Source: an uncultured Pseudomonadota bacterium (GTDB taxonomy: Bacteria > Pseudomonadota > Alphaproteobacteria > RF32 > CAG-239). Taken from it: 64,000 nt of DNA. The stretch covers positions 66,655-130,654 of the forward strand of contig CASEQD010000005.1 of the NCBI GenBank assembly GCA_949289935.1, written 5' to 3'. Position 1 is the first letter of the stretch, and every line of letters starts with the position of its first letter. Shown here in pieces: positions 7,201 to 59,677 of the stretch. The notes below the pieces were generated by a model. It made no database searches, was not told where the DNA came from, and saw nothing but the letters and a program-made list of their open reading frames with translations. The position numbers and the translations under genes are program-made.

Positions 7201-7324
7201 TGAAGTAAAGAAAACATAATAACCGTTTTTTACATTTTTGTTAAATATTTTCTGCTATACTGATTTTATATTGAAATTTTTGTCAAAAAAAGTTACAATA
7301 CCAATAAAACACGAGGATATTATC

Positions 7325-15337: not shown

Positions 15338-15369
15338 AAAACCAGTGATGATAAAGTGTGGAGGATGAA

Positions 15370-20391: not shown

Positions 20392-20534
20392 CCCGGTTGT
20401 GGCAATAATGCAATATATTGATTTCAGGATAAAATATTTTTTTTAGGGTTGCGTCCGTAAAAAAAGTATGATATGATGACAATATGCTTCAGAAAGGAGC
20501 ATTTAGTTTAACCACAGTAATTGGGAGAAAAGCG

Positions 20535-21552: not shown

Positions 21553-21575
21553 GACAGCAAATGCTGATATGCGGG

Positions 21576-21613
21576 AAAGAGGCGGATTTTCTGCCTCTTT
21601 CTTTTTTTTTTTT
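21576..21613 (+). terminator. rho-independent terminator after F1
   Basis: AAAGAGGC...GCCTCTTT stem followed by a long T-run. Confidence 0.8.
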
Positions 21614-21789
21614 GCAAATTTTTTCTCATAAACAAAGCAAAGTTATGCACAGAACAGATTTTTCCGTTGCCAGATATTAATAAAATGTTAAAAATTAAGA
21701 AAAAAAGAATTTTTTGTTGTGAAAAAGCATATAGTTCAGAAAGGGCGAGTTGCTTTACATCCGTATGACGGACGAAGGAGAATATAAAC

Positions 21790-22911: not shown

Positions 22912-22936
22912 TAAAATTTGTCTTAAAACAAAAAAA

Positions 22937-22966
22937 AGCAGGGCTCTTCCCCTGCTTTTTTGTTTT
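22937..22966 (+). terminator. rho-independent terminator after F2
   Basis: AGCAGGG-CTCTTC-CCCTGCT followed by TTTTTTG. Confidence 0.8.
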
Positions 22967-22989
22967 AGAAAATATTTTTTATTCTATTT

Positions 22990-23235
22990 TTTCTCTGAAT
23001 AGTTCTCCACTTTCTCTCCCTTGAGTAGCCTCTCTTTTTCTCCTCCCCTGAGTACATCCCTCTCATTCCCTCCCTGAGTAGCCTCTCTTTTTCTCCTCCC
23101 TGAGTAGGGCTTTCCCTTTCCTCTCCCCCTGAGTAGGGGGAGTTGGAGGGGGTATGATTCAAACCCAATCATCAGAATCTTTTTCGCCGACAGAAGTAAA
23201 ATTGCCGGATTGTAAAAATGACAATCAAACTCAAA
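22990..23235. repeat. mosaic repeat cluster R5 (five to six CCTGAGTA units + degenerate H1-like tail)
   Basis: The spacing between successive TGAGTA cores is 26-29 nt by my count. The cluster ends in CTCCCCC-TGAGTA-GGGGGAG hairpin + GGGGGTATGATTC. Confidence 0.9.
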
Positions 23236-23321
23236 CAAAATCAGCGCCGTAAAAAAATCTTCTTTATTTTTTTCGGACAATTGCTAATATATAAAAAACA
23301 AAAAACAGGGATAAAAAAATC

Positions 23322-24632
23322 ATGCGAAAAACCTTTGCCGCTTTTTTATTGTGCAGTGTATTTACGGCTTTCCCGGCCTTAGGACAGAATACTGCCGGGA
23401 TAGCGTTAAACGAAACGTCCGCGGCTCCGGAAGCAATAGAACGGCGGCCGTCGGATTCGTCGGAAAATAAAACGCCGGAAAACATAAATATAACGGATTC
23501 TGCGTCCCAAAAAACGGAAGAGGCTTCGTCAGCCCGGACAACGTCGGCTGAAGGCGAAAGTCTGGCGGAAAAAGAAAAGAAAGGGCTCTTTTCTTTCCTG
23601 AATTTTTCGTTTATCAGTCCCAAAAATTCCGAAATTGCCAAAGAGGCCGAAGAGCATAAGGAAACCTTTCTTCAGGCGGTTACCCGCAAAGCCGAAGAAG
23701 GCAATGTCGATGCGCAGCTCAGCCTTGGCTATATGTATCTTTACGGGGATGCCGATGCCGGTGTGACGGCTGACTATGAGCAGGCGTTCAAATACTATTC
23801 CATGGCGGCGGAACAGGGCGATAATATTGCCATCAACAACTTGGGCAGCCTTTATTACAGTGGTGTCGGCACCAAACGCAATCCTTACAAAGCGGCGATT
23901 CTTTTTGCCAAAGCGGCGGATATGGGCAACATTGAAGCCTCCGTCAATCTGGCTTTTTTGTACCTGAGCGGCAGCGGCGTCCGTCAGGACAGCAAACAGG
24001 CGATGAACTACTTTGCCAAAGCGGCGGAACAGGGAAATCTCACGGCGGAATTCATGATGGGTTATGCTTATTACAAAGGTTTCATTGTCGGGCAGGATTT
24101 CCGCAAGGCTTTTGAACTGATGCGCGATCCGGCGCAGGCCGGCTTTGACGAGGCGCAATACAATCTGGCGCTGATGTATTTAAACGGCGAGGGCATAACC
24201 AAAAACTACGGCAATGCGGTAAAATATTTTGGAGCTTCGTTTATGCAGGGCAATGTGCAGGCCATGGTTGAGCTGGCCGGAATTTTGGCGGCGGGGCAGG
24301 TTTATCCCCAAAACATTTATCAGGCGCATACTTTGTATAATATTGCTTCTGTCCGCGGTGCGCCTGATGCGGCCGCCCGGCGCGACGAACTGGAAAAATA
24401 CCTGAAAATCGATGAAATTTTGCAGGCGCAGACCGAAGCCGAAAATTTCAAAGACCAGCCCAAAGAGCTGACCAGCTACATCCGAAAAACTTTTGGAACA
24501 AACATTGCCGGGTACATTGACGAACAGATGCCTAAAAAACCGGCGCTGGCAAAGCCTTTATACGCTTCTCCCGCAGATGCGTCTTCTCAACCGCAGTCCC
24601 AGCCGGCATCCGGCAGTCGTCCTCTGTTGTAA
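23322..24632 (+). CDS. secreted Sel1-like (SLR/TPR) repeat protein
   Basis: Has a signal peptide and at least six Sel1-type repeats (e.g. AQLSLGYMYLYG, AINNLGSLYYSGVG, ASVNLAFLYLSGSG, AQYNLALMYLNGEG). Confidence 0.85.
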   Translation: MRKTFAAFLLCSVFTAFPALGQNTAGIALNETSAAPEAIERRPSDSSENKTPENINITDSASQKTEEASSARTTSAEGESLAEKEKKGLFSFLNFSFISPKNSEIAKEAEEHKETFLQAVTRKAEEGNVDAQLSLGYMYLYGDADAGVTADYEQAFKYYSMAAEQGDNIAINNLGSLYYSGVGTKRNPYKAAILFAKAADMGNIEASVNLAFLYLSGSGVRQDSKQAMNYFAKAAEQGNLTAEFMMGYAYYKGFIVGQDFRKAFELMRDPAQAGFDEAQYNLALMYLNGEGITKNYGNAVKYFGASFMQGNVQAMVELAGILAAGQVYPQNIYQAHTLYNIASVRGAPDAAARRDELEKYLKIDEILQAQTEAENFKDQPKELTSYIRKTFGTNIAGYIDEQMPKKPALAKPLYASPADASSQPQSQPASGSRPLL

Positions 24633-24755
24633 AATTTATGGAGCATTAACGAAATTTTTAGCATCTGAATATTATCTTTTTCTCAGCATATTTGAAAAAA
24701 ATATCGAAAAAAAGCCATAAGGCAAAACCAATCCAGAATTAAGGAGAAAAAAATA

Positions 24756-25853
24756 ATGTCAGACATTTCATTAACCGCCAGTATGAGAACAAACCTGTTG
24801 TCTTTGCAAAATACGCAGAGCCTGATGGATACAACTCAGGAGCGTTTGTCAACCGGCAAAAAAGTAAACTCGGCTATTGATAATCCGTCTTCATACTATA
24901 CCGCACAAAACCTGACCAACCGCGCCGGCGACCTGGAAGGCCTGCTGGACAGCATGGGACAGGGCATTCAGACCATCAAAGCCGCCAACGAAGGCATTGA
25001 ATCCATCACCTCTTTCGTTGAACAGGCCAAGGCTGTTGCCAACACCGCCCGCGACACCGCTTACAAAACCGAAGTCGAAAGCTCGGGAACTTTTACCAAT
25101 TCTGTTCAGGAGTCGGCAGACGCAACAGCCAATACCGAAACCTTGACGCTTAAAGTCGGCGATGTAACTTTGAGCTATGACGTGAAAGGAAAAAGTACCG
25201 GAAACGCTGCCGATGGTTTGACGGCTGTTATTAACGGGTTGACAACAGGCAGTAATCAAACGACTTACGATGCGGCTAATTTCACGATTGAAGCCAACGA
25301 CGCCGGTAATGGTATTATCATCAAGGCCAAAGACGGTGCGAGCATCAGTGGCTCCGTCAGCATTGAAAACGGCATGGGCTTAACCATAAACGGCAAACTC
25401 GACACCACCTCCCGGCAGAACTCCATCGACCAGTACAACGATATTTTGGCTCAGATAGACCAGTTGGCGGCCGATGCTTCTTATAAAGGCATTAACCTGT
25501 TGAAAGGCGACGAATTGAAAGTCATCTTCAACGAAGACCGCAGCTCGTTTATCGAAATCAAAAGCGAAAAGACGGCAGATTCGACAGGGCTGGGCTTGAC
25601 CGCTGTTACGGATTGGTCAGACAACGACTTGGTTGATGACACCATTACCCAGGTTGAAAGCGCCATCAACACACTGCGCGACATGGCTTCCGAGTTTGGT
25701 AACAACTACTCCATCGTCCAGACGCGTCAGGACTTTACTGAAAACCTGATTAACGTTTTGGAAGAAGGTGCGGATGACCTGACCCTGGCGGATATGAACG
25801 AAGAGTCGGCAAACATGCTGGCGCTTCAGACCAGAGCTGTTCTGATTTTTTAA
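24756..25853 (+). CDS. flagellin paralog F3, C-terminally truncated (last ~21 conserved residues replaced by AVLIF)
   Basis: The N-terminus and body are intact. The sequence after ...NMLALQTR is about 59 nt shorter than F2 by my alignment, so the terminal D0 helix is missing. It may be non-functional. Confidence 0.7.
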   Translation: MSDISLTASMRTNLLSLQNTQSLMDTTQERLSTGKKVNSAIDNPSSYYTAQNLTNRAGDLEGLLDSMGQGIQTIKAANEGIESITSFVEQAKAVANTARDTAYKTEVESSGTFTNSVQESADATANTETLTLKVGDVTLSYDVKGKSTGNAADGLTAVINGLTTGSNQTTYDAANFTIEANDAGNGIIIKAKDGASISGSVSIENGMGLTINGKLDTTSRQNSIDQYNDILAQIDQLAADASYKGINLLKGDELKVIFNEDRSSFIEIKSEKTADSTGLGLTAVTDWSDNDLVDDTITQVESAINTLRDMASEFGNNYSIVQTRQDFTENLINVLEEGADDLTLADMNEESANMLALQTRAVLIF

Positions 25854-25865
25854 TATGGGGAAGAA

Positions 25866-25892
25866 AAAGGGCGGTTTTTTCCGCCCTTTTTT
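25866..25892 (+). terminator. rho-independent terminator after F3
   Basis: AAAGGGCGG-TTTTTT-CCGCCCTTT followed by a T-run. Confidence 0.8.
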
Positions 25893-26006
25893 AATAGAAC
25901 TTTTGTATAGCATTTTTTTATTGCACTGGATTTAAAAACATGTTACCATAAATATATGCTTCAGTAAGGAGCAGTTAGTTTAACCACAGTAATTGGGAGA
26001 AAAGCG

Positions 26007-27021
26007 ATGTCAGATATTTCATTAACCGCAAGCATGCGGACAAACCTGTTGTCTTTGCAAAACACTCAGAGCCTGATGGATACCACGCAGGAACGCTTGT
26101 CAACGGGTAAAAAAGTAAACTCAGCTATTGATAATCCGTCTTCATATTATACGGCGCAAAACCTGACCAACCGTGCCGGCGACCTGGAAGGCCTGTTCGT
26201 CGAACAGGCCAAGGCTGTTGCCAACACCGCCCGCGATACATCCTATAAAGGCAAAGTTGAAAGTTCGGGCACATTTACGGCTGTAGATGGTCAGAAGGTA
26301 ACAATTAAGGTTGGCAATGAAACGATAGAAAGTAATGAATTGTCAACGGATGATGGAATTGAGGCATTGGTTACGGCTTTTACAAGTGCAGCTAATTATG
26401 GTAATTTGAGCTTCACTGTTGCAGCTAATGCGGATAAGACGGGAATTATCGTCAAAGCTAAGGATGGAACGGAAATCACGGCGGATGTCAGCATCGAAAA
26501 CGGCATGGGTTTGAGCCTGAGCGGTGAAATTGACACCACAACCCGCAAAAACTCCATTGACCAATATAACGATATTTTGGCTCAGATAGACCAGTTGGCG
26601 TCCGATGCGTCATATAAAGGCGTCAACCTGCTGAAAGGCGATGAGTTGAAAGTCATTTTCAACGAATCATTTTCAACGAAGACCGTAGCTCGTTTATTGA
26701 AATCAAAAGCGAGAAACATGCGGATTCGGCAGGATTGGGTTTGTCTGCTGTTACGGCGGCGGATTGGTCGACAAATGACGGTGTCGATGCCACCATCACT
26801 CAGGTTGAAGGCGCCATCAACACGTTGCGCGACATGGCCTCCGAATTTGGTAACAACTACTCCATCGTCCAGACGCGTCAGGACTTCACTGAAAACCTGA
26901 TTAACGTTTTGGAAGAAGGTGCGGATGACCTGACCCTGGCGGATATGAACGAAGAGTCGGCAAACATGCTGGCGCTTCAGACCAGACGCAGGCGGCTCAG
27001 TCGGTTCTGCAGTTGTTCTAA
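26007..27021 (+). pseudogene. flagellin paralog F4, disrupted (69-nt in-frame deletion, 14-nt tandem duplication, ~34-nt C-terminal deletion)
   Basis: TCATTTTCAACGAA is duplicated at 26653-26666 and 26667-26680, which shifts the frame. The C-terminal region lies in another frame (track ORF 26735-27118). The ancestral stop TAA is at 27019-27021. Confidence 0.75.
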
Positions 27022-27885: not shown

Positions 27886-28090
27886 AAAAATAAAATCCCC
27901 GAAGGGATTTGTTGTTAAAACCGGTGAGGCAAGCCGTCATAGCCGTACACGACATTCAAAACTCGAACCGCTGTCACTAAGTGGGCACCATATAAACAAA
28001 CCACGATTTGTTCAGAGACAGTTCCCTGAAAAATAATGTTGGCTCGGTAGACCTGCGGAAACTACGCACCGGACAGCTTGCCTCCATGCC
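27886..28090 (-). ncRNA. ssrS: candidate 6S RNA (SsrS)
   Basis: A roughly 200-nt non-coding gap immediately downstream of zapA, which is the classic ssrS position. The 5' arm GAGGCAAGCUGUC pairs with the 3' arm GACGGCUUGCCUC. There are internal hairpins, and it ends in the terminator AAAUCCC-UUCG-GGGAUUU plus a U-run. Not verified with a covariance model. Confidence 0.5.
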
Positions 28091-42100: not shown

Positions 42101-42132
42101 AAAACCAGTGATGATAAAGTGTGGAGGATGAA

Positions 42133-42942
42133 ATGCGTGTGTTCCGTTCCGCCGGCAAAAAGGTATATTTTACCCTGCTGGCTTCTTCTTTTATGTTTCC
42201 GATTTCCGCTTTTGCCCAATGTGTGGAAACAGATTGCAATACGTTAGGCTACGATTCGACAACAGCATGCGACAACGGAATAAAATGTCCCTTCGGCGAA
42301 TATTGGGCTTGTCCCGAACCTAAAGAACCCGAAGGAGCCGTTCTCGGTCAGTGCACAGGTTATGCCAAGAATTGTAAAATCGCCGATATCCTTTACACAG
42401 ACGGTACCTGCTCTGCCGATGTCATTTCCGGTAAAACCCCGGTCGGCGTTGTGGTTTACATCGGCGGGGACGGTTGCGGTCAGGCGCTGGCATTGGAAGG
42501 ACTGGGAGAATATCCATGGTCAACAGAACAGGTCGATATCCCGGATTTGCCGAATTACAGCAGTGAACCAATCAATGACTTTTCCAGTTGTGAGAATACC
42601 AAAACTGTTATTGATTACAGTTACAAACAATATGGAGACAGCGCCTATAAATATTATCCGGCGTTTTGGCAGGTATACAACTACGCGCCGTCAAGCATGC
42701 CGGAAACAAAAGGCAAATGGTGTTTGCCTGCCGGCGGCGTGTTAAACAGTATCTATCAGAACAAAACTGCTATTGACCAAAGCCTAACCAGAATCAACAA
42801 GCCAAACATCGGCAATAGCTACTGGTGGTCGTCGTCCGAGAACACTAATTACTACGCGTGGTACTGGGGCGCGTCTTCGGGTGAATTCGGCAATCGCAAT
42901 AAGCTCTACGGCGACTATGTTCGCCCGGTGCTCGCTTTTTAA
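42133..42942 (+). CDS. secreted Cys-rich DUF1566/C-type-lectin-like protein, paralog P3
   Basis: Signal peptide MRVFRSAGKKVYFTLLASSFMFPISAFA|QC. The body resembles P2 and the C-terminal cassette is unique. Confidence 0.75.
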   Translation: MRVFRSAGKKVYFTLLASSFMFPISAFAQCVETDCNTLGYDSTTACDNGIKCPFGEYWACPEPKEPEGAVLGQCTGYAKNCKIADILYTDGTCSADVISGKTPVGVVVYIGGDGCGQALALEGLGEYPWSTEQVDIPDLPNYSSEPINDFSSCENTKTVIDYSYKQYGDSAYKYYPAFWQVYNYAPSSMPETKGKWCLPAGGVLNSIYQNKTAIDQSLTRINKPNIGNSYWWSSSENTNYYAWYWGASSGEFGNRNKLYGDYVRPVLAF

Positions 42943-47478: not shown

Positions 47479-48420
47479 CTAAAACTCAATTACCGGAATA
47501 ACCGAATTTAGAAGCCCTTTAGGATCAGCACTACCCCAAACTCCGCCAGGTAGTGCTAAAAACCATGTATAATCTTCATTTCTTTCTGATGATGACCACC
47601 ACCACCCGTCTTTTCCAATATCCTTTTCAGCAAGTCTTATCAAACTTTGATTTATCAATTCTATGTTTTTATAAGCATTCTCCAAGACACCGGCAGCAGG
47701 CAAACACCACTTTCCTTTTGTTATTGAAGAAGGTGCATAATTATGAGCTTTCCAAGCTGCAGTATAATATTTCCATGCACTTTCTCCATATTTTTCCTTG
47801 CTGTAATTTATAATATTTTCTGTATTTTTGCAGCTGTCAAAATCTTTTAATGCGTCTTCTTTAGTCTCATAATTAGGTAAATTTGGAACATCAATAATTT
47901 CTGTCGACCATGAAACTTCTTCCAATTCTTCCAGTGCCAAAGCCTGACCGCAGCCGTCCCCGCCGATGTAAACCACAATGCCGACCGGTTCAACCCCGCT
48001 GACGCGGTAGTCCGAGCAGCTGCCGTCAATATTCAAAATTTGACCTATTTTGCAGTTTTTGGCGTAACCGGTGCACTGGCCGAGAATCGCTCCGGCTCTC
48101 TTCGTACAGGCGCCGTCTTTCCATTCATAACCGGAAGCACAGGTACAGGAGGCATATTTGTTGTTACAGGGCGTTCCGCTGCCGGAAGCATAGCCGGTGC
48201 CGGAACAATCGTATTTGAAGCCGTATTCGGCGCAGGTTTCTTCCTTGCTGGACGGGCATGCCCATTTATCGCCGAAAGGGCATTTGATGCCTTTTCCATT
48301 CGGGCAGGAAGTTTCGGTATATCCCAAAGTCGCACAGTCAGTGGTTGCCACGCACTGGGCGTTAACAAACTGAGGAATTAAGGACAGACTCGTCCCTAAG
48401 AGTAAAGTTTTGATTTTCAT
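47479..48420 (-). CDS. secreted Cys-rich DUF1566/C-type-lectin-like protein, divergent paralog P4
   Basis: I chose ATG 48420 after AAGGAG. Signal peptide MKIKTLLLGTSLSLIPQFVNA|QC. It has the same domain order as P1-P3 plus a roughly 50-aa Cys/Gly-rich insertion. The C-terminus is WWWSSSE...VIPVIEF. Confidence 0.75.
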   Translation of the reverse strand: MKIKTLLLGTSLSLIPQFVNAQCVATTDCATLGYTETSCPNGKGIKCPFGDKWACPSSKEETCAEYGFKYDCSGTGYASGSGTPCNNKYASCTCASGYEWKDGACTKRAGAILGQCTGYAKNCKIGQILNIDGSCSDYRVSGVEPVGIVVYIGGDGCGQALALEELEEVSWSTEIIDVPNLPNYETKEDALKDFDSCKNTENIINYSKEKYGESAWKYYTAAWKAHNYAPSSITKGKWCLPAAGVLENAYKNIELINQSLIRLAEKDIGKDGWWWSSSERNEDYTWFLALPGGVWGSADPKGLLNSVIPVIEF

Positions 48421-48654
48421 TGTTAGCTCCTTTGTTTTCAAGTTAAACAAACTCTCCGTTTGCTGTTCAAAACAAAGGAGAGTGGAGCTAGAAAACTGTC
48501 ACAATACAGTCGTTGTTATTCAATATATTACCAACACTCCACTCATTGAGTGGATGTTTCCATTGTGAGGTGTTTTCTAGACACCACAGACAGCTTTCCT
48601 GCCTGCAATTATAAGTATAGCGGAAATTGGTTAAAAAATAAAGAAGATTTTTTT

Positions 48655-48994: not shown

Positions 48995-49028
48995 ATCAAA
49001 AACCATCACCCCGGACTTATCCCGGGGA
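48995..49028 (-). terminator. weak terminator-like hairpin downstream of the T4CP gene
   Basis: CCCCGG...CCGGGG stem. On the minus strand a T-run follows after 6 nt. Confidence 0.4.
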
Positions 49029-49127: not shown

Positions 49128-51323
49128 TTATTCTTCGTCTTCTTCAAAATCGTCTTCGTCGTTCGGATCATATTCAATGCCGAGCTTTGCCAGCATATCT
49201 TCATTAATGTCCTCGCGCTGGGCGACAATCCAGTCCGGAACACAGGGAGCGGCAGGCAGAGCGGCCAGAGCTTTCATTTTCTTGTCCAGATACCAGCGGG
49301 GCGAGTCGGCCATAATCGGCCGGTCAATAAAGCCTTGCATCAAAACAACCTGTTTCAGCATCGGCAGGCTGAGCAGCTGAGTTGTACTGATAACGGATGT
49401 CCCCTGCAGTTGATAGGATACGTTTTTTGAAAAAGGATTGGCGCCTTTGCCCATACCTTCGTTTTTGGAAAATGATGTGGTTTGTACGGTTTTGTTGCCG
49501 ATCATTTTGGAAAAACGCTGGGCGGTCACTTCGTTGTTTTGCGACAGAATGATTTTGCAGGCGGTTGTGGAAATAACGGTTTCCAAATCGTCTTTTCCAT
49601 ATTTTCCGGAGATTTGCCCGAGGTCTTGCCCGATAAGCAGATACGACACTTTTTGTCCGCGTCCGACTGCCGGCCCGTCAATAATGGCTTTCAGCTTCGG
49701 CATTTGCGGAAACTCGTCAAGCACAAACAACGCGGGAAAAGGCCCCATCACGCCGTCGGTTTTGTTTTTGAATTTCGGTGGATTGGCAATCAAATAAGAC
49801 GACATCAGCTCAATGAACGTACCGCTGATAATGCCGAGCGCGCGGGCATCCACCTGGTTGACCGACAAATAAACCGAAATTGGTTTCCATTCGCCGGTAA
49901 CCGGATCTTTCATCCCGCGCAGGTCTTTAAATTGCAAATCCGAAAAACTGGTACGCGACACCACGGCCGAGTTCTTAAAAATGCCGATACCTGCCAAACC
50001 GGTGGAAAGAACCGAGCCTCGTTCTTTGTCAGGCATGGCGGAAAGTTGGCTGAGCTCGGTAATGCAGCGGTTGGAATAACCAAATTTGCGGGCTTCCTCA
50101 ATGGCTTCTTCCAGCATGTTGCGCATCGGATCGGCCATAGCCGCCATCTGGTCTCCTTCTTCCACCCGGCGCTTGATTTCCTGCGACTGTTTGATTTGTG
50201 CTTCCGTAATCCATTCCAGAATCATGGCCAGACAAGGCTCATGCCCGATCCATTTTTCCGGCAGCAGGCTCCATGTCCCGATAGGCAGATAATTGTCGAT
50301 TGTAACATTATTGGTTCTGACGTCCTGAATGGCTTTTGCCGCCAGCGGATCGTGCATTTCCAGATAATAGCTTTCCAGCACGCGCTTGTCTTCTTCATCA
50401 AGCTTGCCCTCATAAATACGGCCGATGAAATAGTCGTTGGCTCGGGCTTTTTCACATTTGAAAGAAACAAAATGAATAAAGCCGGTCAAAGCGGAACGTC
50501 CGGTTTTGGACCAGTGCGGGTCGGCGCCGCCCTTGGGATCTTCCACCAGAATATTGCACATTGAGTCAATATACATATCGCGGTCTGGGCCGGGCAGCGG
50601 CAGAGCATTCGGAGAAAGAGGATTCCAACTCGGATAATAAATACCTTCGGCCGGATTGTCTTCCGCTCCCCAGTTAATGACAAACACGGGGCCTTCTTTG
50701 GCTCTGGCGCCGGTTGTACTGTAACACAATTCGGGCTTCGGGTCGTTAACGATAATGCTCAGTCCCTGCGAATTGAAAATCGTCGGCATAACCACGCCGA
50801 CCGTTTTACCTGTTCCCGGCGGCGCGCAGCACAGAGTTGCCAGTGTTTCTTTCAGCTTCAGCAAATGTCCTTTGTACTTTCCGACCACCATGCAGAAACC
50901 GTCCAGCAGTCCCATCTTTTTTATGTCTTTCAAATCAGCCAGCCGGGCGGAACCGTGAATGTTCGATTGAAAACGATAAGGATTGGTGATGATGCCGATT
51001 GTCAGCCCGACGGGCAGGGCGATAAACGGCAGAATTGGAAGCCACAAACTCACCGAAAAAGCGCCGTGATAACTTGTCAGTTGGCGGAACCAAATGCTGT
51101 AGCGCGACATCAGATAAGAGGGATTTTGAACAATCGTCTGAATAAAACGGGAAACCTCGTTCATGCTGTTTTGCGAAATGCCGCTGCCGATAAGATATCC
51201 CAGCGGCAGCGCCAAAATCAAAAGTGCAATGGTTATCACCAGGGAGATAATAACCGTAACAACCATCCATTGCACGGCATGGTCATATTCTTCCCATTCT
51301 TCCCCTCTTTTTTCCATCCCCAT
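49128..51323 (-). CDS. VirD4/TraG-family type IV secretion coupling protein-like ATPase
   Basis: 731 aa with two N-terminal TM helices. Walker A region CCAPPGTGKTVGVVMPTIFNSQGLSIIVNDPKPE, Walker B ALFVLDEFPQM, and GRGQKVSYLLIGQDLGQI...YG, as in VirD4/TraG. The tail is acidic (DEDDFEEDEE). Confidence 0.8.
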   Translation of the reverse strand: MGMEKRGEEWEEYDHAVQWMVVTVIISLVITIALLILALPLGYLIGSGISQNSMNEVSRFIQTIVQNPSYLMSRYSIWFRQLTSYHGAFSVSLWLPILPFIALPVGLTIGIITNPYRFQSNIHGSARLADLKDIKKMGLLDGFCMVVGKYKGHLLKLKETLATLCCAPPGTGKTVGVVMPTIFNSQGLSIIVNDPKPELCYSTTGARAKEGPVFVINWGAEDNPAEGIYYPSWNPLSPNALPLPGPDRDMYIDSMCNILVEDPKGGADPHWSKTGRSALTGFIHFVSFKCEKARANDYFIGRIYEGKLDEEDKRVLESYYLEMHDPLAAKAIQDVRTNNVTIDNYLPIGTWSLLPEKWIGHEPCLAMILEWITEAQIKQSQEIKRRVEEGDQMAAMADPMRNMLEEAIEEARKFGYSNRCITELSQLSAMPDKERGSVLSTGLAGIGIFKNSAVVSRTSFSDLQFKDLRGMKDPVTGEWKPISVYLSVNQVDARALGIISGTFIELMSSYLIANPPKFKNKTDGVMGPFPALFVLDEFPQMPKLKAIIDGPAVGRGQKVSYLLIGQDLGQISGKYGKDDLETVISTTACKIILSQNNEVTAQRFSKMIGNKTVQTTSFSKNEGMGKGANPFSKNVSYQLQGTSVISTTQLLSLPMLKQVVLMQGFIDRPIMADSPRWYLDKKMKALAALPAAPCVPDWIVAQREDINEDMLAKLGIEYDPNDEDDFEEDEE

Positions 51324-51339
51324 GTCTACCCTCTTGTGT

Positions 51340-52701
51340 TTAAGAAATGCTTCTGATAAGTTTTTTCAGTTTGTCAAATTTATCTTTGCCGATTGGCTTG
51401 TCGGCATCTTCAAGAGCTTTGGCAAAGAGCTTGATTTCTCTCGGCGTGCCTCTGTCTATCCGCGTAACGTTTATTCCCATTTCGTCCCAGATTTCAAACA
51501 TGTCTTCGGCATTGATGATATTGCCGATCTGAATGACGACATAAGCGCTGACGGCATATTTGAGCCCTTCGGATTGAAGTCTTTCTTCCAAAAACTTTTT
51601 GGCCAGATCAACTTTGCGCACCGGAGAAATCCGATGGCTGTTTTCCGAAAACCACAAAGGTTCTTCATCATTGAAGCGTTCTTCATCGGCCAGCCAGTCG
51701 CCGGGTTCTTTATCAATCAGACACAGGCAGATTTTGGATTCGGATACGCCGATAAAATCAATCAGATTATTTTTGATTGTGGCGCCGTTGATTGTTTCAT
51801 AACCGTGTTGGCGGATAACGTCAAGAGAAGAGTTTCCGCTTTTGGAGGAAGAAGGATTTTTGGCCTGTACCGCATTTTTGCCGGAAGAAGCTGCCGGAGA
51901 GTTGTTTTTGTTGTTTTTGCGCTCCCGGCGGCTGTTTGCGCCAAGATTTTCTTCCCTGGCTTTTTCGGGAGAAAAAGGCGGAATCCGCTGAGGCTCTTTT
52001 TCTTCTTTTGCCGGTTCTGAAGAAGCTTTGTCAAAATCAAAATCGTCAATATTAAAGTCAAAGTCTTCATCTTTGTCATCCATACTGAACAGAGAATGAC
52101 TGAATTGCTTGGGAGCTGCAGCCGGAGCGGAAGCGGGAACGGCTGCCGCCGCTGGTTGAATCTTTTGAACGGGTGAAAGCAGGGGCGTATTGGCCGCGTC
52201 GACGGCCGCAGTTAAGGGCTTTACGCGGGGAGAAGCACTGATGAGCTTGCCTTTTGCGGCAGGTTCGGGACGATCGTCCAGCGGCATGGTCAGACTTCGT
52301 GGGCGGATTTCTTTATAAGATTTTTTCTTTTTTGATTTTTTAGCCGAAGAACTGCTGTTGGCAATAATGCGCACCGGCCGGAAAAAAAGTTTTTGAATGA
52401 GCCGCCACGGATACATTCCCAGCTTGAACATATGATTTTCCCACTTAATCATGCTGAGAGCCGCCCAACCGCACAGCCAAAGGGGAATGAAAGTTAAAAT
52501 AATCAGAATAAAAGCCCATTCTTTCGGCGTATCAATCACCCAGCCGGACATCCACAAATTCCAGGCATGATGCCAATGAGCGGTTTGAAACATGTCAAAA
52601 TGCCAGTTTGTGAGCATGATAACCCTTATCCCCTCAATGAAGAACACGCTCCAAAAGAGGCCGACGCACATAATTCTGGTTAAAATAACAAGGGGTTTCA
52701 A
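51340..52701 (-). CDS. polytopic membrane protein with long disordered linker and C-terminal NERD-like (tentative) domain
   Basis: The N-terminal TM domain is paralogous to that of 52757-53245. The C-terminus LIDFIGVSESKICLCLIDKEPGDWLADE...WF...SPVRK loosely fits the NERD/restriction-endonuclease-like pattern. TTG start is uncertain. Confidence 0.5.
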   Translation of the reverse strand: MKPLVILTRIMCVGLFWSVFFIEGIRVIMLTNWHFDMFQTAHWHHAWNLWMSGWVIDTPKEWAFILIILTFIPLWLCGWAALSMIKWENHMFKLGMYPWRLIQKLFFRPVRIIANSSSSAKKSKKKKSYKEIRPRSLTMPLDDRPEPAAKGKLISASPRVKPLTAAVDAANTPLLSPVQKIQPAAAAVPASAPAAAPKQFSHSLFSMDDKDEDFDFNIDDFDFDKASSEPAKEEKEPQRIPPFSPEKAREENLGANSRRERKNNKNNSPAASSGKNAVQAKNPSSSKSGNSSLDVIRQHGYETINGATIKNNLIDFIGVSESKICLCLIDKEPGDWLADEERFNDEEPLWFSENSHRISPVRKVDLAKKFLEERLQSEGLKYAVSAYVVIQIGNIINAEDMFEIWDEMGINVTRIDRGTPREIKLFAKALEDADKPIGKDKFDKLKKLIRSIS

Positions 52702-52756
52702 TGCAGTCCTTTCAAAAGTTTTTCTTTAAGGCTAACACATTTTGGTTAACAAGAAC

Positions 52757-53245
52757 TTATTTTTCCGAACGAATTTTTCCGGCGATGTTTTCTCTTATTT
52801 TGCTGGTTTCTTTTTCTTCATCAAGTTTTTTTTCAAAATCTTTGAGCTTTTGAGCGATAATTTGTTTTTGATCTGGTTCTTCGCTCTTGGTGCCGATGTT
52901 GTGCAATACGATTCGCGTACCGCCGCCGTATTTTTTCAAAACGCGCTCGTCATGCCATTTGAAAGGCAGAGCCAGTATCTCGGAGATTTTTGTTCGGTAA
53001 AGTTTTTTCCAGCCCCAGCTCCAGAGAGCAAAAGCCGCAATAAAAGAAAGAACAAACAAAAAATCCGTTCCGCTTTTGATTTTTCCGCCGCTGTTCCAAA
53101 AATTGCTGATAATTTGCCAGTCGCTGCGGCTGAAAATATCAAAATGCCAGATAAAAGAACAAATAAAATGAAAGAGCATTAAAAAGACATAAGTCCATGC
53201 CGCGCCGACAAAAACAAGTTTCAGAAGCTTACCGAATTTTTTCAT
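52757..53245 (-). CDS. small polytopic membrane protein, paralog of the N-terminal domain of 51340-52701
   Basis: Shared motifs are WHFD[IM]F, W[NM]SG and LWxxGW in the same order. Confidence 0.55.
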   Translation of the reverse strand: MKKFGKLLKLVFVGAAWTYVFLMLFHFICSFIWHFDIFSRSDWQIISNFWNSGGKIKSGTDFLFVLSFIAAFALWSWGWKKLYRTKISEILALPFKWHDERVLKKYGGGTRIVLHNIGTKSEEPDQKQIIAQKLKDFEKKLDEEKETSKIRENIAGKIRSEK

Positions 53246-53248
53246 ATT

Positions 53249-54730
53249 TTACCTGCCGCCGCCCAGGCCGTATTGGTTGCGCAGCATTTGCGTCAGCTGC
53301 TGATCGGGTTTTCCGTCAATGCCGGTAGACACATAATGCGGATCGCTCAAACGCCTTCTGAGCTCATCTCGTTTCTGGTCGCGCTGGGCTTCTTTGGCAA
53401 GCCTTTGCTGCCGTTTTACCGGATCATTCATAATCCGGGCTCTGGCCTGTTCAAGCTGCCGCCGCCGGTTTTCCAGATTAATCCGGCGGGCTTCTTCGGT
53501 ATATTCCCGCGACTGCAGGTTTTCCATTTCCCGCGAAATCGCCTGGTCAAAATCCTGAGCCATCAGCATGCTCTCCAGCATATTGGCCGGTGCTGCGTTG
53601 ACATCAATTCCCTGCAACAGGTTGTTCAGCTCTTCCCAGGCTTTATTTTGTTTCGGCTGGCCGTATTTTTTACCGGTCATGGAGCGGTAAACCCGGCGGT
53701 ACCATGCATTGTTCTTTTTGGCATAACCGTCGAAGCGTCCGGCTTTCAGATGTTTGTCCTGAGCTTCAAACGCCTTTTGGGCGGCGCTGAGCAATTTGCC
53801 GCTCAATACCGTTGTATTGCCGCCGTTTTCCGCCGCCAGACTCAGGGCTTTGGCAAATTTTGCCAGCCCTTCCTTTCGCAGTTGTTCAAAGGCATTGTCA
53901 TTGCCGTTGGGATGTTGAAAGTTTTTGTCCTGCATTTTGGGGTCGGTCATGGCTGTTGCGGCATACAAATAAGAAAACTGCATGGCGGCAATCATGTTGT
54001 CTTTCATGTTGTCCTGACATTTCTGAATGCGCTTTTTGTCAAAAAATTTGTTAAAATCTTTTTCCGGCATGTTTTTAATTAATGTTTTGGTTTTTTCCGG
54101 CAGATCGGTCTCATCAACTTTACCTTCGCGGATTTTGTCGCAAAGTTCAACCAGGCCGTTGTAATTTTCAAATTTATCCGTTTTCTTTTTGGATTCTTCC
54201 AAAGCCTTGTTGCCGTATTTGTCCCGCCACTGGTATGCCTCATGTTTTTCCAGATCGCGGGTTTTGTTTTTTTCGGCATCTCTTTTGAAATTGTCTCTCA
54301 CATGCCTGTAATAGCCGGTTTTTATCTTTTTTGACGTCCATGTCCACAAAAAGTTTGCACCGCCGATAAGCCAGTCCTTGTACATATAATCAATAACGTC
54401 GCCTTCCTGGAAAGGACCTTTGTCTTCATCGCCGTCTTCTTCTTTGTCATCGGGTTTTCGCTCAATTTCGGGGCCGTCCCCGCCTTTTTCGGTCTCATCT
54501 TCTTTTTGAGGCGTTTTTTTTGTTTCTTCTTTTTGAGCCTCGTTGATTTTTGTTTCCCGGGGCAGCTCGTTAACCGTGGTTTCTTTAACGTTTTCGTTGA
54601 AAGTCGTCTCGTTGCTTTCTTCGTTAACCGTGGTTTCCTTATCGGGAACCTGGTTGAAAGTAGTCGTTTGCTGCTTGTCAGGCTCCGGAGCGGATCCTTC
54701 CGAAACGTTGAGTGTTGCATTATCAGACAT
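53249..54730 (-). CDS. hypothetical highly charged protein with N-terminal (K/R/Q)ETT(V/F)NE repeats
   Basis: 493 aa with no TM or known domain. Its stop lies 3 nt from the next start. Confidence 0.55.
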   Translation of the reverse strand: MSDNATLNVSEGSAPEPDKQQTTTFNQVPDKETTVNEESNETTFNENVKETTVNELPRETKINEAQKEETKKTPQKEDETEKGGDGPEIERKPDDKEEDGDEDKGPFQEGDVIDYMYKDWLIGGANFLWTWTSKKIKTGYYRHVRDNFKRDAEKNKTRDLEKHEAYQWRDKYGNKALEESKKKTDKFENYNGLVELCDKIREGKVDETDLPEKTKTLIKNMPEKDFNKFFDKKRIQKCQDNMKDNMIAAMQFSYLYAATAMTDPKMQDKNFQHPNGNDNAFEQLRKEGLAKFAKALSLAAENGGNTTVLSGKLLSAAQKAFEAQDKHLKAGRFDGYAKKNNAWYRRVYRSMTGKKYGQPKQNKAWEELNNLLQGIDVNAAPANMLESMLMAQDFDQAISREMENLQSREYTEEARRINLENRRRQLEQARARIMNDPVKRQQRLAKEAQRDQKRDELRRRLSDPHYVSTGIDGKPDQQLTQMLRNQYGLGGGR

Positions 54731-54808
54731 GTTTTTTTATCCTTGCAGAAATAAATCTTTCCATTGTTAATATTCTAACATTGTTTTTCTGTTTTGTCTA
54801 TATTTTTT

Positions 54809-55714
54809 CTAAGCTTTCAGTTTTTTCAAAAAATCGCCGATAAGCCGGTTTATTCTGATGCCGTCCTGAGGCTTGACTTTTATCAGCCCGAAGAAGCGGG
54901 GTTTTATTTTGCTGAAATCGATAGGGGCAAAAACAGCCGGATTTTGAGTAAGGACTTTATAAGCGCCGTCGGCGTCTTTTTGGGCGGTTTTGAAATAATT
55001 TTTAACCAGGCGTTCGGCATCTACCGGAAAATTTTTTTCTTTAATGGCTTCAATATAACGATTAATGCGGGCAATACGCTTTTGATGTTCTTCATAAATT
55101 TCACGTTCCAGTTTTTTTTTCTCATGTTTGAGCTTGCGTTCTTTATATGAAATTTCGCACCCTTCCATTTCAATCAGAATTTCCACATATGAAATCAGGG
55201 CAAACTGTAGAGCGTCGTCGTCGCAGCTTTCGGCGGTTGTCAAAATTTCTTCGTCGCTGGCGTTCGGGTTGATTTTTTCTTTAATTTCGGGATGAGATTT
55301 AATCATAACATCCCAGCCCCGGACGGTATCTTCGGCAATCATTTTGCCCGTGCTTGGTTTGTAGTTTGGGTAAAGCATGTTCGCCTCAAGCCGGAATACC
55401 GGGGTTTTCAAATGAAAATCATCAGCCAGAATGTCAATAGCGTCTTTGTAATTACGATAAGCTTTGAAAAGAGCTTTTTCATTTTTTTTCAAAAAAGATA
55501 TTTCTTTGTCGTCTTCATCCGTCAGCGTTGAGTCGGAATTCAAATCTTCCGGCTGGTCGGAACCGGTTGCGGGCGTTTCGGCGGCAATCGGGGAAACATC
55601 CTCGGCGGCAGCCTGTTTTGGGGCTGCGGGTGTGGTCTCAATATCAACATCCTCAAGCTGGGTGTTGATAAAATCGTTTAACATTTTTTCAAATTCAGCA
55701 TCATCATTGTTCAT
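54809..55714 (-). CDS. hypothetical acidic protein
   Basis: 301 aa, same strand and cluster. No recognisable domain. Confidence 0.5.
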   Translation of the reverse strand: MNNDDAEFEKMLNDFINTQLEDVDIETTPAAPKQAAAEDVSPIAAETPATGSDQPEDLNSDSTLTDEDDKEISFLKKNEKALFKAYRNYKDAIDILADDFHLKTPVFRLEANMLYPNYKPSTGKMIAEDTVRGWDVMIKSHPEIKEKINPNASDEEILTTAESCDDDALQFALISYVEILIEMEGCEISYKERKLKHEKKKLEREIYEEHQKRIARINRYIEAIKEKNFPVDAERLVKNYFKTAQKDADGAYKVLTQNPAVFAPIDFSKIKPRFFGLIKVKPQDGIRINRLIGDFLKKLKA

Positions 55715-55735
55715 GGTCTTTGGAATTCCTTAAAG

Positions 55736-56020
55736 TTAATAGAGGCTGACGGTTGAAACTTTTTTGCCCGTGTCCGGGTCGAAAATAACAATCCTGTCGG
55801 CAAGGGCGCCGCCTTTAACGACAATACAAATATATTCCTGACATTCTAACATATTGTTAATGAAACTGCCGTCCGCTTCTCCGAGATTTATATTTCTTTC
55901 AATTTCAGCCGGTTTGTTGTTCAGCCGCCGGTAAAGGGTTGTCAGCATGAACAGGCTGCCGGCAATCAGCAGAAAAGTCATCGCGACGACGGCAATTTTA
56001 ATGAGCTTCAGTTTATCCAT
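55736..56020 (-). CDS. small N-terminally membrane-anchored hypothetical protein
   Basis: I chose ATG 56020 after AAGGA. There is one TM helix, IKIAVVAMTFLLIAGSLFMLTTL. Confidence 0.5.
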   Translation of the reverse strand: MDKLKLIKIAVVAMTFLLIAGSLFMLTTLYRRLNNKPAEIERNINLGEADGSFINNMLECQEYICIVVKGGALADRIVIFDPDTGKKVSTVSLY

Positions 56021-56097
56021 AAATCTTTTCCTTGCCAAATGTTTAAAAACTTGTCATCTTTATTCAGAGTAAGGGAAATAAAGTTAATTTTTGACAA

Positions 56098-57092: not shown

Positions 57093-57575
57093 TTAAGAAA
57101 TATGTTTATTGTTAAGTTCGCTGCCCCATTCGTCAGCCAATTTTTTCAGGCGCTCGTCGATTCTCTCAATTTGCCGCTTTCTCAAATTCTTAATGTAAGA
57201 AGCATAAAAGAAAGGCGCTTCATTATATAGAATTAACCCGATTCCGGCGGAAAGCAGCATAAAAATCAGGTTAAAAATATCGCTGGCGATTGAAACGGCG
57301 TGATTAACCGAAAAATTGTTGAGAATATTGAACAAATAGAAAAAAACACCCGCAATGTTAAAACAGCCGACAATCATCTGCTTATCATAGTTGTTTTTGT
57401 CCGTCACCATAACCGTAATGGTCGGAAGCAAACCGATAAACAACACCAGCACAATGGGAAAAGATGAAAAAATCAGCAAAGCCGCGGCCAAAAGCAGCAA
57501 AGCTTTTTGAAAGCGGGTCAGCCTTTTGAATGTCTTTTTTGTTTGTGTATTGTTTTTATTTGTTTTCTGTATCAT
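57093..57575 (-). CDS. small polytopic membrane protein, translationally coupled to the pseudokinase gene
   Basis: ATG 57575 overlaps the upstream stop (ATGA). Three or four TM helices. Confidence 0.55.
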   Translation of the reverse strand: MIQKTNKNNTQTKKTFKRLTRFQKALLLLAAALLIFSSFPIVLVLFIGLLPTITVMVTDKNNYDKQMIVGCFNIAGVFFYLFNILNNFSVNHAVSIASDIFNLIFMLLSAGIGLILYNEAPFFYASYIKNLRKRQIERIDERLKKLADEWGSELNNKHIS

Positions 57576-59677
57576 TGCAATACCCACATGGTTAAATTAT
57601 AAGCAAAGGAGGCCAGCATAATGAACATTGAAATAAAAGATAAGGCTTTAATGGCGGTTTCCCGGCAGGAAAGTTCCAAATGCTCGTCTTCCGTCAGATA
57701 TTTGTTTTTTTTCAAGACCAGTGAATTGGCCTCGCTCAGGGCAGCGGCATAATCCGTCCGGTCTTTATAGAGGGCGTCTTCGTTTTCAAGCAGATTGATT
57801 ATATCAAACAAACGTCCTTTTTTATAAACTTTCAACAATTCCCGTTCCAGATATTTTTGATAGCGCCGGTTATGATAAATCTGCACGATGGGAAGAGAAA
57901 TGCTGGCCGTCCATTTTGCCAGATTAATAAGGATGGCGGGGCCGTGTTTGTTTTGAATGTTTGAATATAAATGCAAAATGGCGCTGGCTTTGATTTCTTC
58001 TTTTGAAGAATTCAGGTCGGAAATAATATTTTCGACTTTTTTCCCGATTTTGCTGCGCAAATAAGCAATAATACTCCGGTCATAAGGCATGGTATCCTTG
58101 TCGGAATCTTTATAATTGTTGTTAATGGCTCTGAGCAGGGGCGCCGGCCCGTCAACAAATTCTTTGCCGAGCAGAGGGCTGGCACAGGGCAGGTCGTCGT
58201 CAAAATCATAAATAACGCGTTCCAGCCCGTAGCCGATGTCTCGCCGGTTAATGCAGCTTCTGAATTCTGAAGCATTGGCCGGAGAACGCAGGTTGCTTTG
58301 TTCCTGATACCACATTTTAATCAGATCCGTATTAAAGATTTCGGCAAAGAGCGAAAGGTTTTTTTGTTCTTTCATAGCCATAAAAACAGCTTTCGGCAAA
58401 CCGTTCGGAAAAAATGTCATTCCCTTGTAACGGATGGGAAAAGAAGGGCAGATAACAACGCAGGTTCTGGCCACCAGCAAATCTTTATTCGGCGCCGCGC
58501 CGGCAGATTGCCCGAGAATGTTTTCCACTTTTGTTTTCAATTTATCATTGTCCAGAATATTTTTTACCCATTCCGTAATTTTTCCACCGGAAATAATTTC
58601 ATAAGCTTCTTCAATATTGCTGTAAAGGGCGTAAACAACTTCTGCCGGCGAATAAACCTTTTCCCCGCCGATTAAAAGCGAACGTTTTGGTTTTTCTTCC
58701 GCCGCCAGAGAAGGATGGGAGGATGCTTTCCCTTCCAGAGCATTATAAACCTGAGAATACCCCCAGCGATTGTCTGAGGAATCGCTGAGCAGCCCTTTAA
58801 GAACAGCAACATAAGCCGGAGAAATTTTTTGCTTCTCGGTCAGTGCCAGAAAACTGCTTTTTTTCATTTTTTTATACAAAACTTCGGCAGCAGAAGCGGC
58901 GGTAACGGGTTCCTTTCCTGAAATCAGACTCAAAGCGGTAACGCCGATAGCATAAAAATCATCTTTTTCGGAGCCGTTTCCCCGGGCTTCCGGGGCTGCA
59001 TAAAGATTTTCGATGGTTTCAAAAGCCGGCGGCTGGTGATAAGCGGGAAAAGAAGCGGCGCAATCGCCGAGAACGATTTCCGTTCTCTCGGAATCTTTGA
59101 AATACAGGTTATCGCAACGGATGGCCCGATGTGTAATGCCGTGCCCTTTCAAGGTATCTGCCAGACTCAAAAAGCCGAGAATTGTCGTCTTAAACGTTTC
59201 AAAAGAAATTTCCCCGAGAATGGAAACACCGTTTACAAAAACTTTTCCGCCCAGCGGAACAGTATAAATCAAAGCCATGCACTGGCTTTTTTCCACCGGG
59301 TTGTCAACAACGCCGTATTCCACCAGTTTCATCAAGTGCGGAATTGAGGTGGATTTCAAAAAAGACAAAATGGACAGCCTGGGAGATGTAAGGTTGCTGC
59401 AAACCAGAGCAAAAAGTTTTTTTGTGGCATCAATCCTGTCAACGGCGGCATAAGCTTTTCCGCTGTTGTTGTCAAGCCAGGGCATCGGGTTTGAAAAATC
59501 AATTTCATACCGTTCTTTGAGCAGAAATTTCTCATCAAAATCCCGTTCTGCTTCCTGAACCTGTTCTTGCTCATTTTCGGCATAATCCCGGACTTCTTCG
59601 GAAATTTCATTTTCTGAAACCTGAACATTTTCTGCATTTTCAATAGGTTCGTTCTTTTCTTCTTCTGCTGCGGCCAT
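57572..59677 (-). CDS. C-terminally membrane-anchored protein with degenerate Ser/Thr protein-kinase-like domain (pseudokinase)
   Basis: Kinase-like HRAIRCDNLYF (HRD Asp replaced by Ala), LGDCAAS in place of DFG, APE motif (YAAPEARG), and DFYAIGVTALSLISGKEP. No Gly-rich loop or VAIK Lys is evident. The C-terminal TM is ALSFISMFIMLASFAYNL. Confidence 0.6.
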   Translation of the reverse strand: MAAAEEEKNEPIENAENVQVSENEISEEVRDYAENEQEQVQEAERDFDEKFLLKERYEIDFSNPMPWLDNNSGKAYAAVDRIDATKKLFALVCSNLTSPRLSILSFLKSTSIPHLMKLVEYGVVDNPVEKSQCMALIYTVPLGGKVFVNGVSILGEISFETFKTTILGFLSLADTLKGHGITHRAIRCDNLYFKDSERTEIVLGDCAASFPAYHQPPAFETIENLYAAPEARGNGSEKDDFYAIGVTALSLISGKEPVTAASAAEVLYKKMKKSSFLALTEKQKISPAYVAVLKGLLSDSSDNRWGYSQVYNALEGKASSHPSLAAEEKPKRSLLIGGEKVYSPAEVVYALYSNIEEAYEIISGGKITEWVKNILDNDKLKTKVENILGQSAGAAPNKDLLVARTCVVICPSFPIRYKGMTFFPNGLPKAVFMAMKEQKNLSLFAEIFNTDLIKMWYQEQSNLRSPANASEFRSCINRRDIGYGLERVIYDFDDDLPCASPLLGKEFVDGPAPLLRAINNNYKDSDKDTMPYDRSIIAYLRSKIGKKVENIISDLNSSKEEIKASAILHLYSNIQNKHGPAILINLAKWTASISLPIVQIYHNRRYQKYLERELLKVYKKGRLFDIINLLENEDALYKDRTDYAAALSEANSLVLKKNKYLTEDEHLELSCRETAIKALSFISMFIMLASFAYNLTMWVLQ

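Follow-up and report, generated by a model that had tools for sequence, protein, structure and literature searches.

Why would a gut bacterium keep the gene for a type IV coupling protein (T4CP), the kind of ATPase that decides which cargo a type IV secretion system (T4SS) exports, among core genes such as cell-division genes and rluD, with no secretion channel in sight? The question is raised by a 64,000-nt stretch of DNA (hereafter the window) from an uncultured alphaproteobacterium of the RF32/CAG-239 lineage. A reading of the sequence alone had described there six closely spaced minus-strand genes ending in a VirD4/TraG-like ATPase, and had wavered between a remote piece of a scattered T4SS and an ATPase recruited to a different membrane machine. 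Our answer, which we place slightly on the probable side, is that the block is a lineage-specific coupling/receptor module of a dispersed chromosomal VirB/VirD4 T4SS whose genes lie among housekeeping genes. Membership of the ATPase in its family with intact Walker motifs, the same gene order near virB genes in a sister group, and vertical inheritance under strong constraint all point that way.

The layout of the cluster is much as first described. The six minus-strand open reading frames (ORFs) are present in the ORF listing of the window, coordinates included, and the intergenic gaps, recomputed from the ORF coordinates, come to the same operon-like 21, 78, 3, 55 and 16 nt; the flanks are indeed core genes, namely mraZ-rsmH-ftsL-ftsI and rluD. 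The count of six needs amending at its first member, a small single-transmembrane (TM) protein matching Pfam DUF6476 (5.7e-08), which has 100 aa when read from a TTG start (55736..56038, minus strand; gene callers also choose a 94-aa ATG version at 55736-56020). Its gene is detected between rluD and the next gene of the cluster in some members of the lineage only, and sister lineages lack it. It therefore probably lies outside the module, even if it may be co-transcribed with it, and five genes are left.

The last of these genes (49128..51323, minus strand) encodes the 731-aa ATPase, which, judged by family scores and motifs, is a bona fide VirD4/TraG coupling protein. It matches Pfam T4SS-DNA_transf (PF02534) with 197.6 bits against a cut-off of 20.1 (E-value 4.8e-58) and is also above the Pfam cut-offs for TraG-D_C (5e-23) and TrwB_AAD_bind (5e-16). 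It falls under all NCBIfam VirD4/TraG/TraD equivalog cut-offs (Ti, IncP, F, SXT and CD1115 types), the best equivalog being CD1115 (142 bits vs a cut-off of 250), with VirD4 PRK13897 at 125 vs 728. Its architecture comprises two N-terminal TM-like segments (residues 14-51 and 87-115), a nucleotide-binding domain with conserved Walker A (CAPPGTGKT) and Walker B (LFVLDEF) motifs, an all-alpha domain and an acidic C-terminal tail (DPNDEDDFEEDEE); GTGKT and LDEF are kept in relatives down to 43% identity. The single sequence found no PDB match at 0.01. With the family profile, Cag5/Cag-beta of Helicobacter pylori came out best (2e-11), followed by TrwB (4e-4) and DotL (1e-3), and because Cag5 scores best and DotL poorly, the original call of a VirD4-like rather than DotL-like ATPase is correct.

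Is the block a passenger or a part of the chromosome? Scanning one genome per species with a narrow ATPase alignment, a search that returned only close relatives, yielded 431 of them; the best 80 carry ATPases 71-95% identical to that of the window and are all gut-type metagenome-assembled genomes (MAGs). Close homologs are labeled 'Azospirillum sp. CAG:260 / 47_25' and 'uncultured Alphaproteobacteria' and derive from human, ruminant and bird gut metagenomes. The gene-neighborhood check that had been proposed for the cluster was run on the 64 species-level loci in which rluD and the ATPase gene are both readable, and it found the five-gene block conserved in every one: next to rluD, which lies on the opposite strand, come genes for proteins of ~300 aa, 430-890 aa, ~162 aa, 410-510 aa and ~740 aa. 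The 162-aa gene is thus present in 64/64 loci and the slot of the highly variable 493-aa protein is always filled, a constancy of gene order that puts the cluster beyond chance. Past the ATPase lie housekeeping genes that differ between species; synteny stops exactly there, and the block accordingly ends at the ATPase. RluD is 57-69% identical to that of the window, so the ATPase is under stronger constraint than a core rRNA-modification enzyme. For the other members, identity to the window falls to 34-68% in most loci for the 453-aa protein (73% over one end-truncated fragment), 39-62% for the 301-aa protein and 22-51% for the 162-aa protein, and is often undetectable for the 493-aa protein. 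The block is vertically inherited core DNA; a mobile element is ruled out by synteny, namely by the fixed rluD-adjacent position.

This bears directly on a reading that the family of the ATPase would otherwise invite. T4CPs are commonly carried by mobile elements, and here a membrane protein is encoded directly upstream of the ATPase, as in dotM-dotL, which would fit a type IVB coupling complex of the DotL-DotM kind, or else what is left of a decaying integrated conjugative element. Of the explanations considered, we think this one the least probable. No integrase or relaxase family was matched among the genes tested in and around the block, and the window holds no tRNA gene; the ORFs are intact and highly conserved across the best 80 species; the ATPase profile favors Cag5/VirD4 over DotL by eight orders of magnitude; and the upstream partner, described below, has a nuclease-like rather than DotM-like fold, with no match in the cluster to the Pfam families IcmS, IcmW or DotN. 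Synteny and family scores together largely refute it.

Family scans and a six-frame screen agree with the claim that no channel, relaxase or integrase gene is visible nearby. VirB, Trb, Dot, relaxase and integrase families of Pfam and NCBIfam were matched by nothing in the cluster, its neighbors or ten large ORFs elsewhere in the window, and the window's six-frame translation gave no match to queries with VirB4, B6, B8, B9, B10 and B11. In the window and the lineage flanks, the ATPase is an orphan, as had been proposed. When the same queries were put to the six-frame translations of all collected loci, 173 by the last screen, the positives came from sister-lineage and plasmid loci only.

What do the sister-lineage loci look like? 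A search of 1.84 billion representative proteins recovered 269 ATPase relatives at an E-value < 1e-30; groups were drawn from a neighbor-joining (NJ) tree of T4CPs, and further loci were obtained by using the 453-aa family as metagenome bait. Group A, the window's lineage (ATPase identity 71-95%; loci L002-L081 and others), has the order 301-aa protein, variable protein, 162-aa protein, 453-aa protein, ATPase. Its sister in the tree is group B (61-68%; including 'Acetobacter sp. CAG:977'), with a 301-like protein, a variable protein, a paralog and then an ortholog of the 453-aa protein, the ATPase, and two additional genes, d1 and d2, to which we return below; group B proper spans 63-68%, and L154 and L156 (61%) branch just outside it. 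Group C (51-58%; L084, L094, L103-105, L128-129) has the 453-aa ortholog, the ATPase, d1 and d2. In a deeper clade (30-42%; L082, L085-L088), the ATPase is paired with a pentapeptide-repeat protein.

Eight group B loci carry three tandem TrbL/VirB6 paralogs (Pfam 1e-9, 6.5e-8 and 2e-4) upstream of the block on the opposite strand, and in six of the eight the 301-like gene is the next gene, divergently transcribed. Two loci (L112 and L173) have VirB8 (two copies), an ORF of 65-71 aa, VirB9/CagX, VirB10/TrbI and VirB11/T2SSE, with housekeeping genes in between, at distances of 4-17 kb from the block; VirB9 of L112 matches its plasmid counterpart at 4.6e-66. Neither VirB4 nor a relaxase was found in group B loci within the stretches screened. 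The presence of VirB6 and VirB8-B11 near the group B block indicates that the sister lineage has a near-complete, chromosomally dispersed VirB/VirD4 system whose coupling protein is detached in the same module. Of the two options left by the sequence-only reading, the scattered T4SS is now better supported than a different machine, even though no virB gene was seen near the block in the screened loci of the window's own lineage. More generally, a VirD4 gene without nearby T4SS genes in a MAG need not imply a degenerate system. As a separate observation, VirB10/TrbI of the sister lineage (L173:16422-18452, L112:2-2113) contains an inserted beta-flower (Bflower_2, 2.7e-35)/DUF3659 repeat region, which is unusual for a VirB10.

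The 453-aa protein (51340..52701, minus strand) is encoded immediately before the ATPase in all related lineages whose ATPase is at least 51% identical. Its family counts 931 homologs, 49 of which were aligned, and its TTG start is backed by orthologs beginning MKPL. Residues 1-107 form an N-terminal domain for which AlphaFold 2 (AF2) predicts four helices; hydropathy marks two of these as TM-like. An invariant basic motif (KKKKSYKEIRPRS) and a disordered linker of ~170 aa with a conserved acidic-aromatic, FD-rich motif (FDHSLF..DDFDFNFDAFD) are further features, and a C-terminal domain (290-453) is modeled with a predicted local distance difference test (pLDDT) score > 90 in the order alpha-beta-beta-beta-alpha-beta. 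By the positive-inside rule, this domain should be cytoplasmic. In a Foldseek search of the model against the PDB, the top matches were the nickase N.BspD6I (E-value ~0.01, probability 0.99), R2 endonuclease, Card1/Can2/Cdn1, Bax1 and MGME1, nearly all of them PD-(D/E)xK nucleases, with probabilities of up to 0.99 and E-values of only ~0.01; a viral Foldseek library gave endonuclease-like matches of a similar kind. A profile of the protein found only low-complexity matches among PDB sequences. Among the 49 aligned orthologs, Pfam NERD is the commonest match (26/49; best E-value 0.0011), none of them reaching the gathering score; for the window's protein the score is 14.3 bits, the threshold being 22.1. 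A candidate site can be made out at D315...D330-x-E332, with K, R or S as x and the acidic residues kept in every lineage. Glutamate occupies the canonical lysine position, a D..D-x-E arrangement that resembles the BamHI-type D..E-x-E variant, and there is an invariant loop at 334-362. These models point to a NERD/PD-(D/E)xK-like fold for the C-terminal domain, with a putative nuclease activity. The resemblance to DotM-DotL that had been pointed out is positional only: a DotM-like identity is rejected on the fold of the cytoplasmic domain, and the 50 Foldseek PDB matches listed do not include DotM.

A translocase with such a tethered protein at its side may also be pictured as a membrane machine that needs no T4SS, the pair binding, nicking or threading DNA at the inner membrane in the service of DNA export or uptake, chromosome processing or the destruction of foreign DNA, by analogy with the HerA-NurA or FtsK-type pairing of translocase and nuclease. 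In groups A and C alike, every locus shows a locally orphan block, with the 453-aa protein and the ATPase as its invariant core; D315, D330 and E332 of the nuclease-like fold are conserved across lineages; the ATPase evolves more slowly than RluD; and the deeper ATPase relatives are likewise orphan, with other partners. All of this would suit such a machine, which we nevertheless judge unlikely, if worth serious consideration, since the sister lineage has the same module beside VirB6 paralogs and near VirB8-B11, nuclease activity is only predicted (with the canonical lysine replaced and NERD scores sub-threshold), and we know of no T4CP that acts without a T4SS channel. A related idea, which is less probable again, is that the ATPase and the tethered PD-(D/E)xK/NERD-like protein form a self-contained DNA-handling device with or without a VirB channel, in which the domain may be a substitute for a nickase/relaxase or a DNA anchor feeding the ATPase. 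If true, the pair would be a relaxase-independent route for export or processing of DNA (chromosomal or foreign) in a whole order of human-gut Alphaproteobacteria.

The same pairing could bring to mind anti-phage or anti-plasmid defense, the ATPase being T4CP-like and the effector nuclease-like. Defense systems often combine an ATPase with a PD-(D/E)xK-like protein, the only PADLOC match of our ATPase is a weak one to mad8 (E-value 0.0023), and a kinase-like gene with weak matches to defense kinases lies nearby. We find this very improbable. None of the four partners matches a PADLOC defense model; the core position is fixed in 64/64 loci, with orthologous ATPases in the best 80 of 431 species genomes, whereas defense islands are typically patchy and mobile; and the ATPase is a full membrane-anchored VirD4 ortholog.

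The other partners are less readily placed. The 162-aa membrane protein (52757..53245, minus strand) has, like the 453-aa protein, two TM-like segments by hydropathy. It aligns to the latter over 86 aa (BLASTP 2e-11, 31% identity), the N-terminal two-TM domain being common to both, and beyond this domain it has only a short charged tail; because its slot in the sister lineage is filled by a full-length paralog of 356-387 aa, it can be understood as a truncated paralog of the 453-aa protein. The 301-aa acidic protein (54809..55714, minus strand; isoelectric point 5.1; 675 homologs), found in both the window's lineage and the sister lineage, is confidently modeled as an all-alpha fold (AF2, mean pLDDT 83.5). 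Its N-terminus is a conserved amphipathic helix (3-21), from which a disordered acidic linker (23-65) leads to the all-alpha domain (70-300) with its 60-residue helix. Foldseek found no meaningful PDB match for the model (best E-value 0.85), and its profile found nothing among PDB sequences. The 493-aa protein (53249..54730, minus strand) is highly charged (176/493 residues, 36%), fast-evolving and variable in length, the sole patch standing out in its conservation profile being at ~111-125 (DVIDYMYKDWLIGG). Its N-terminal ETT(V/F)NE repeats, which had been noticed early on, are present as 9-aa (K/N/R)ETT(V/F)NE units encoded by a 27-nt tandem DNA array at 54567-54641. It has no family match in Pfam, NCBIfam, PADLOC or PHROGs, where, NERD aside, the partners as a whole yield only sub-threshold noise.

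In the dispersed T4SS that we favor, the VirD4 ortholog would form the usual inner-membrane ATPase ring, accompanied in that membrane by the 453-aa and 162-aa proteins, which would be anchored by their shared two-TM domain. The former would present its NERD/PD-(D/E)xK-like domain in the cytoplasm on a long flexible tether, along which the basic and acidic-aromatic linear motifs may serve as docking sites for the ATPase or for substrate, be it DNA or protein. A soluble adaptor role may fall to the acidic 301-aa protein, and the hypervariable charged 493-aa protein may be an adaptor or a secreted substrate; the genome would carry the channel genes (virB2-B11) at other sites. That the proteins form a complex, what each partner does and that this organism has virB genes are all inferred. 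Several observations weigh against such a module. As the sequence-only reading had it, none of the four partners is recognizable as a described T4SS or coupling-complex subunit, whether by Pfam, NCBIfam, PADLOC, PHROGs, PDB profiles or Foldseek. No virB, trb or dot gene was found in the 64-kb window or in ~5 kb farther to the left, and the screened group A and C loci showed none within 10 kb of the block either. The conservation of the ATPase exceeds what would be expected of a dispensable secretion accessory. Finally, the deeper relatives (30-42%) are locally orphan with a different partner, and the clade may thus have abandoned its T4SS function on more than one occasion. In these loci the gene directly upstream always encodes a pentapeptide-repeat protein of 335-441 aa, the neighbors are housekeeping genes, no T4SS gene is found within 10 kb, and one locus has a prepilin peptidase gene directly downstream. 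We know of no description of such a VirD4-like ATPase/pentapeptide-repeat pairing.

How does the proposed module compare with known systems? Its ATPase shares family and domain order with the VirD4 proteins of P-type VirB/VirD4 T4SSs, for which H. pylori Cag-beta/Cag5 is the best solved structure, and the sister-lineage ortholog likewise co-occurs with VirB6, B8, B9, B10 and B11. The nearest plasmid-borne relatives (Erythrobacter aureus and Sphingosinicella plasmids, 34% identity) are ordinary VirD4 proteins whose genes close virB4..B8-B9-B10-B11-virD4 operons, whereas the module ATPase gene never closes a virB8-B11 operon and sits in an operon of its own with four lineage-specific partners at a fixed core site. 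The rvh T4SS of Rickettsiales is chromosomal, vertically inherited and scattered in islets, with VirB6 and VirB8 duplicated. Chromosomal location and vertical inheritance are shared with our block, and scattered genes with duplicated VirB6 and VirB8 are seen in the sister lineage; unlike rvh, where virD4 follows virB11, the gut lineage has its coupling protein detached, and rvh lacks the NERD-like membrane protein, its paralog and the two soluble proteins.

The likeness to Legionella Dot/Icm (DotL-DotM-DotN-IcmS/W-LvgA) is one of concept: a T4CP in a dedicated multi-protein receptor, a membrane partner whose gene comes just before that of the ATPase, and a C-terminal tail that is acidic or extended. 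By this analogy the module may work similarly to the DotL-DotM-adaptor complex, without homology. DotL is the poorer profile match, as given above, the upstream partner is nuclease-like and not of DotM fold, and IcmS, IcmW and DotN were not found. Among PD-(D/E)xK-fold proteins, which include the restriction-endonuclease-like relaxases of the pAD1 TraX type, the NERD proteins and nicking endonucleases share with the C-terminal domain of the 453-aa protein the order of the core and the conserved acidic residues at the expected strands. This domain differs in being membrane-tethered by its ~170-aa linker, in having D..D-x-E instead of D..(D/E)-x-K, and in the 30-residue invariant insertion after strand 3.

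To our knowledge, little is known of dedicated multi-protein receptors around T4CPs outside Legionella Dot/Icm. The block would add a second case, unrelated to the first, of a coupling protein elaborated in this way, with two paralogous membrane partners, one of them bearing a tethered nuclease-fold domain, a soluble protein without a PDB match and a hypervariable charged protein, all of them a fixed part of the core genome in Alphaproteobacteria that are abundant in gut and rumen but uncultured. Its genes are testable candidates for the choice of T4SS cargo, and, depending on the cargo, for roles in interbacterial killing, host interaction or DNA release. What is new here is the four uncharacterized partner families, widespread in gut Alphaproteobacteria and including the tethered nuclease-fold protein; the anchor ATPase and the probable system type are known. 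A literature search found no paper on T4SS in RF32, CAG-239 or Rs-D84 bacteria, nor on an orphan VirD4 with NERD or pentapeptide partners.

A lead on cargo may come from d1 and d2, which come after the ATPase gene in 18 species of group A as well as in groups B and C (for example L024:12234-13239, L130:14490-15998 and L084:12265-13334). The d1 protein (185-370 aa) carries MWDWS near its N-terminus in groups A and B and has an HNH/His-Me finger-like pattern, H..N..H.P.H...H, in its C-terminal part; d2 (~145 aa) has the LPxxYxxFL..NG signature of SUKH/SMI1 immunity proteins (LPxDYxxFL..DGL.WNG). Profile matches for the pair are all weak (pyocin AP41 DNase, E-value 1.1; Lin2918, 0.05; Pfam SUKH_5, 0.044). 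The pair is absent across the entire window; its distribution suggests that the ancestral module carried two more genes after the ATPase, which were lost in the window's species and its closest relatives. As a weak lead only, d1 and d2 may be an HNH-type toxin with a SUKH-type immunity protein, the kind of pair that serves as T4SS cargo. T4SSs of the Xanthomonas type carry out interbacterial killing, and a toxin-immunity pair beside the coupling protein would, if true, point in that direction.

Consensus scans also offer putative transcription signals. A terminator-like GC-rich hairpin (49009..49027, minus strand; 7 pairs, 6/7 G-C) lies ~100 nt past the ATPase stop codon and likely marks the 3' end of the transcription unit. 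The best-scoring sigma-70-like promoter match (54772..54800, minus strand; 10/12 plus an extended TG), a pattern match only, sits in the 78-nt gap before the 493-aa gene, where it is a possible internal promoter.

The surroundings of the block hold further features. At 57093-59677 (minus strand), a 701-aa protein with a C-terminal TM segment has a degenerate protein-kinase domain (Pfam Pkinase 3.3e-07, below cut-off) and weak PADLOC matches to the MkoA and PD-T4-6 kinases; its gene overlaps that of a 164-aa multi-TM protein, and the two are syntenic with the block across rluD in many, though not all, related species. Directly downstream of the ATPase, where relatives carry other genes, lies a secreted cysteine-rich protein (47479-48450, minus strand) with a weak match to phrog_4245 (4.2e-06); it has two paralogs in the window (15358-16194 and 42121-42942, both plus strand), all three having the N-terminal motif QC(A/V)xTDCxTLGY in common. 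Farther away, a 778-aa ORF without a confident family (7238-9574, plus strand) falls in a stretch whose AT skew is unusually high (0.26-0.30 vs ~0-0.1 elsewhere), and a 6S RNA at 27927-28082 (minus strand; Rfam RF00013, 61.2 bits) is the sole Rfam match in the window. Four flagellin-like paralogs with near-identical N-termini (MSDISLTASMRTNLLSLQ) form an array at 20484-26900 (plus strand), interrupted by a Sel1-repeat protein at 23322-24632 (Pfam 3.2e-42).

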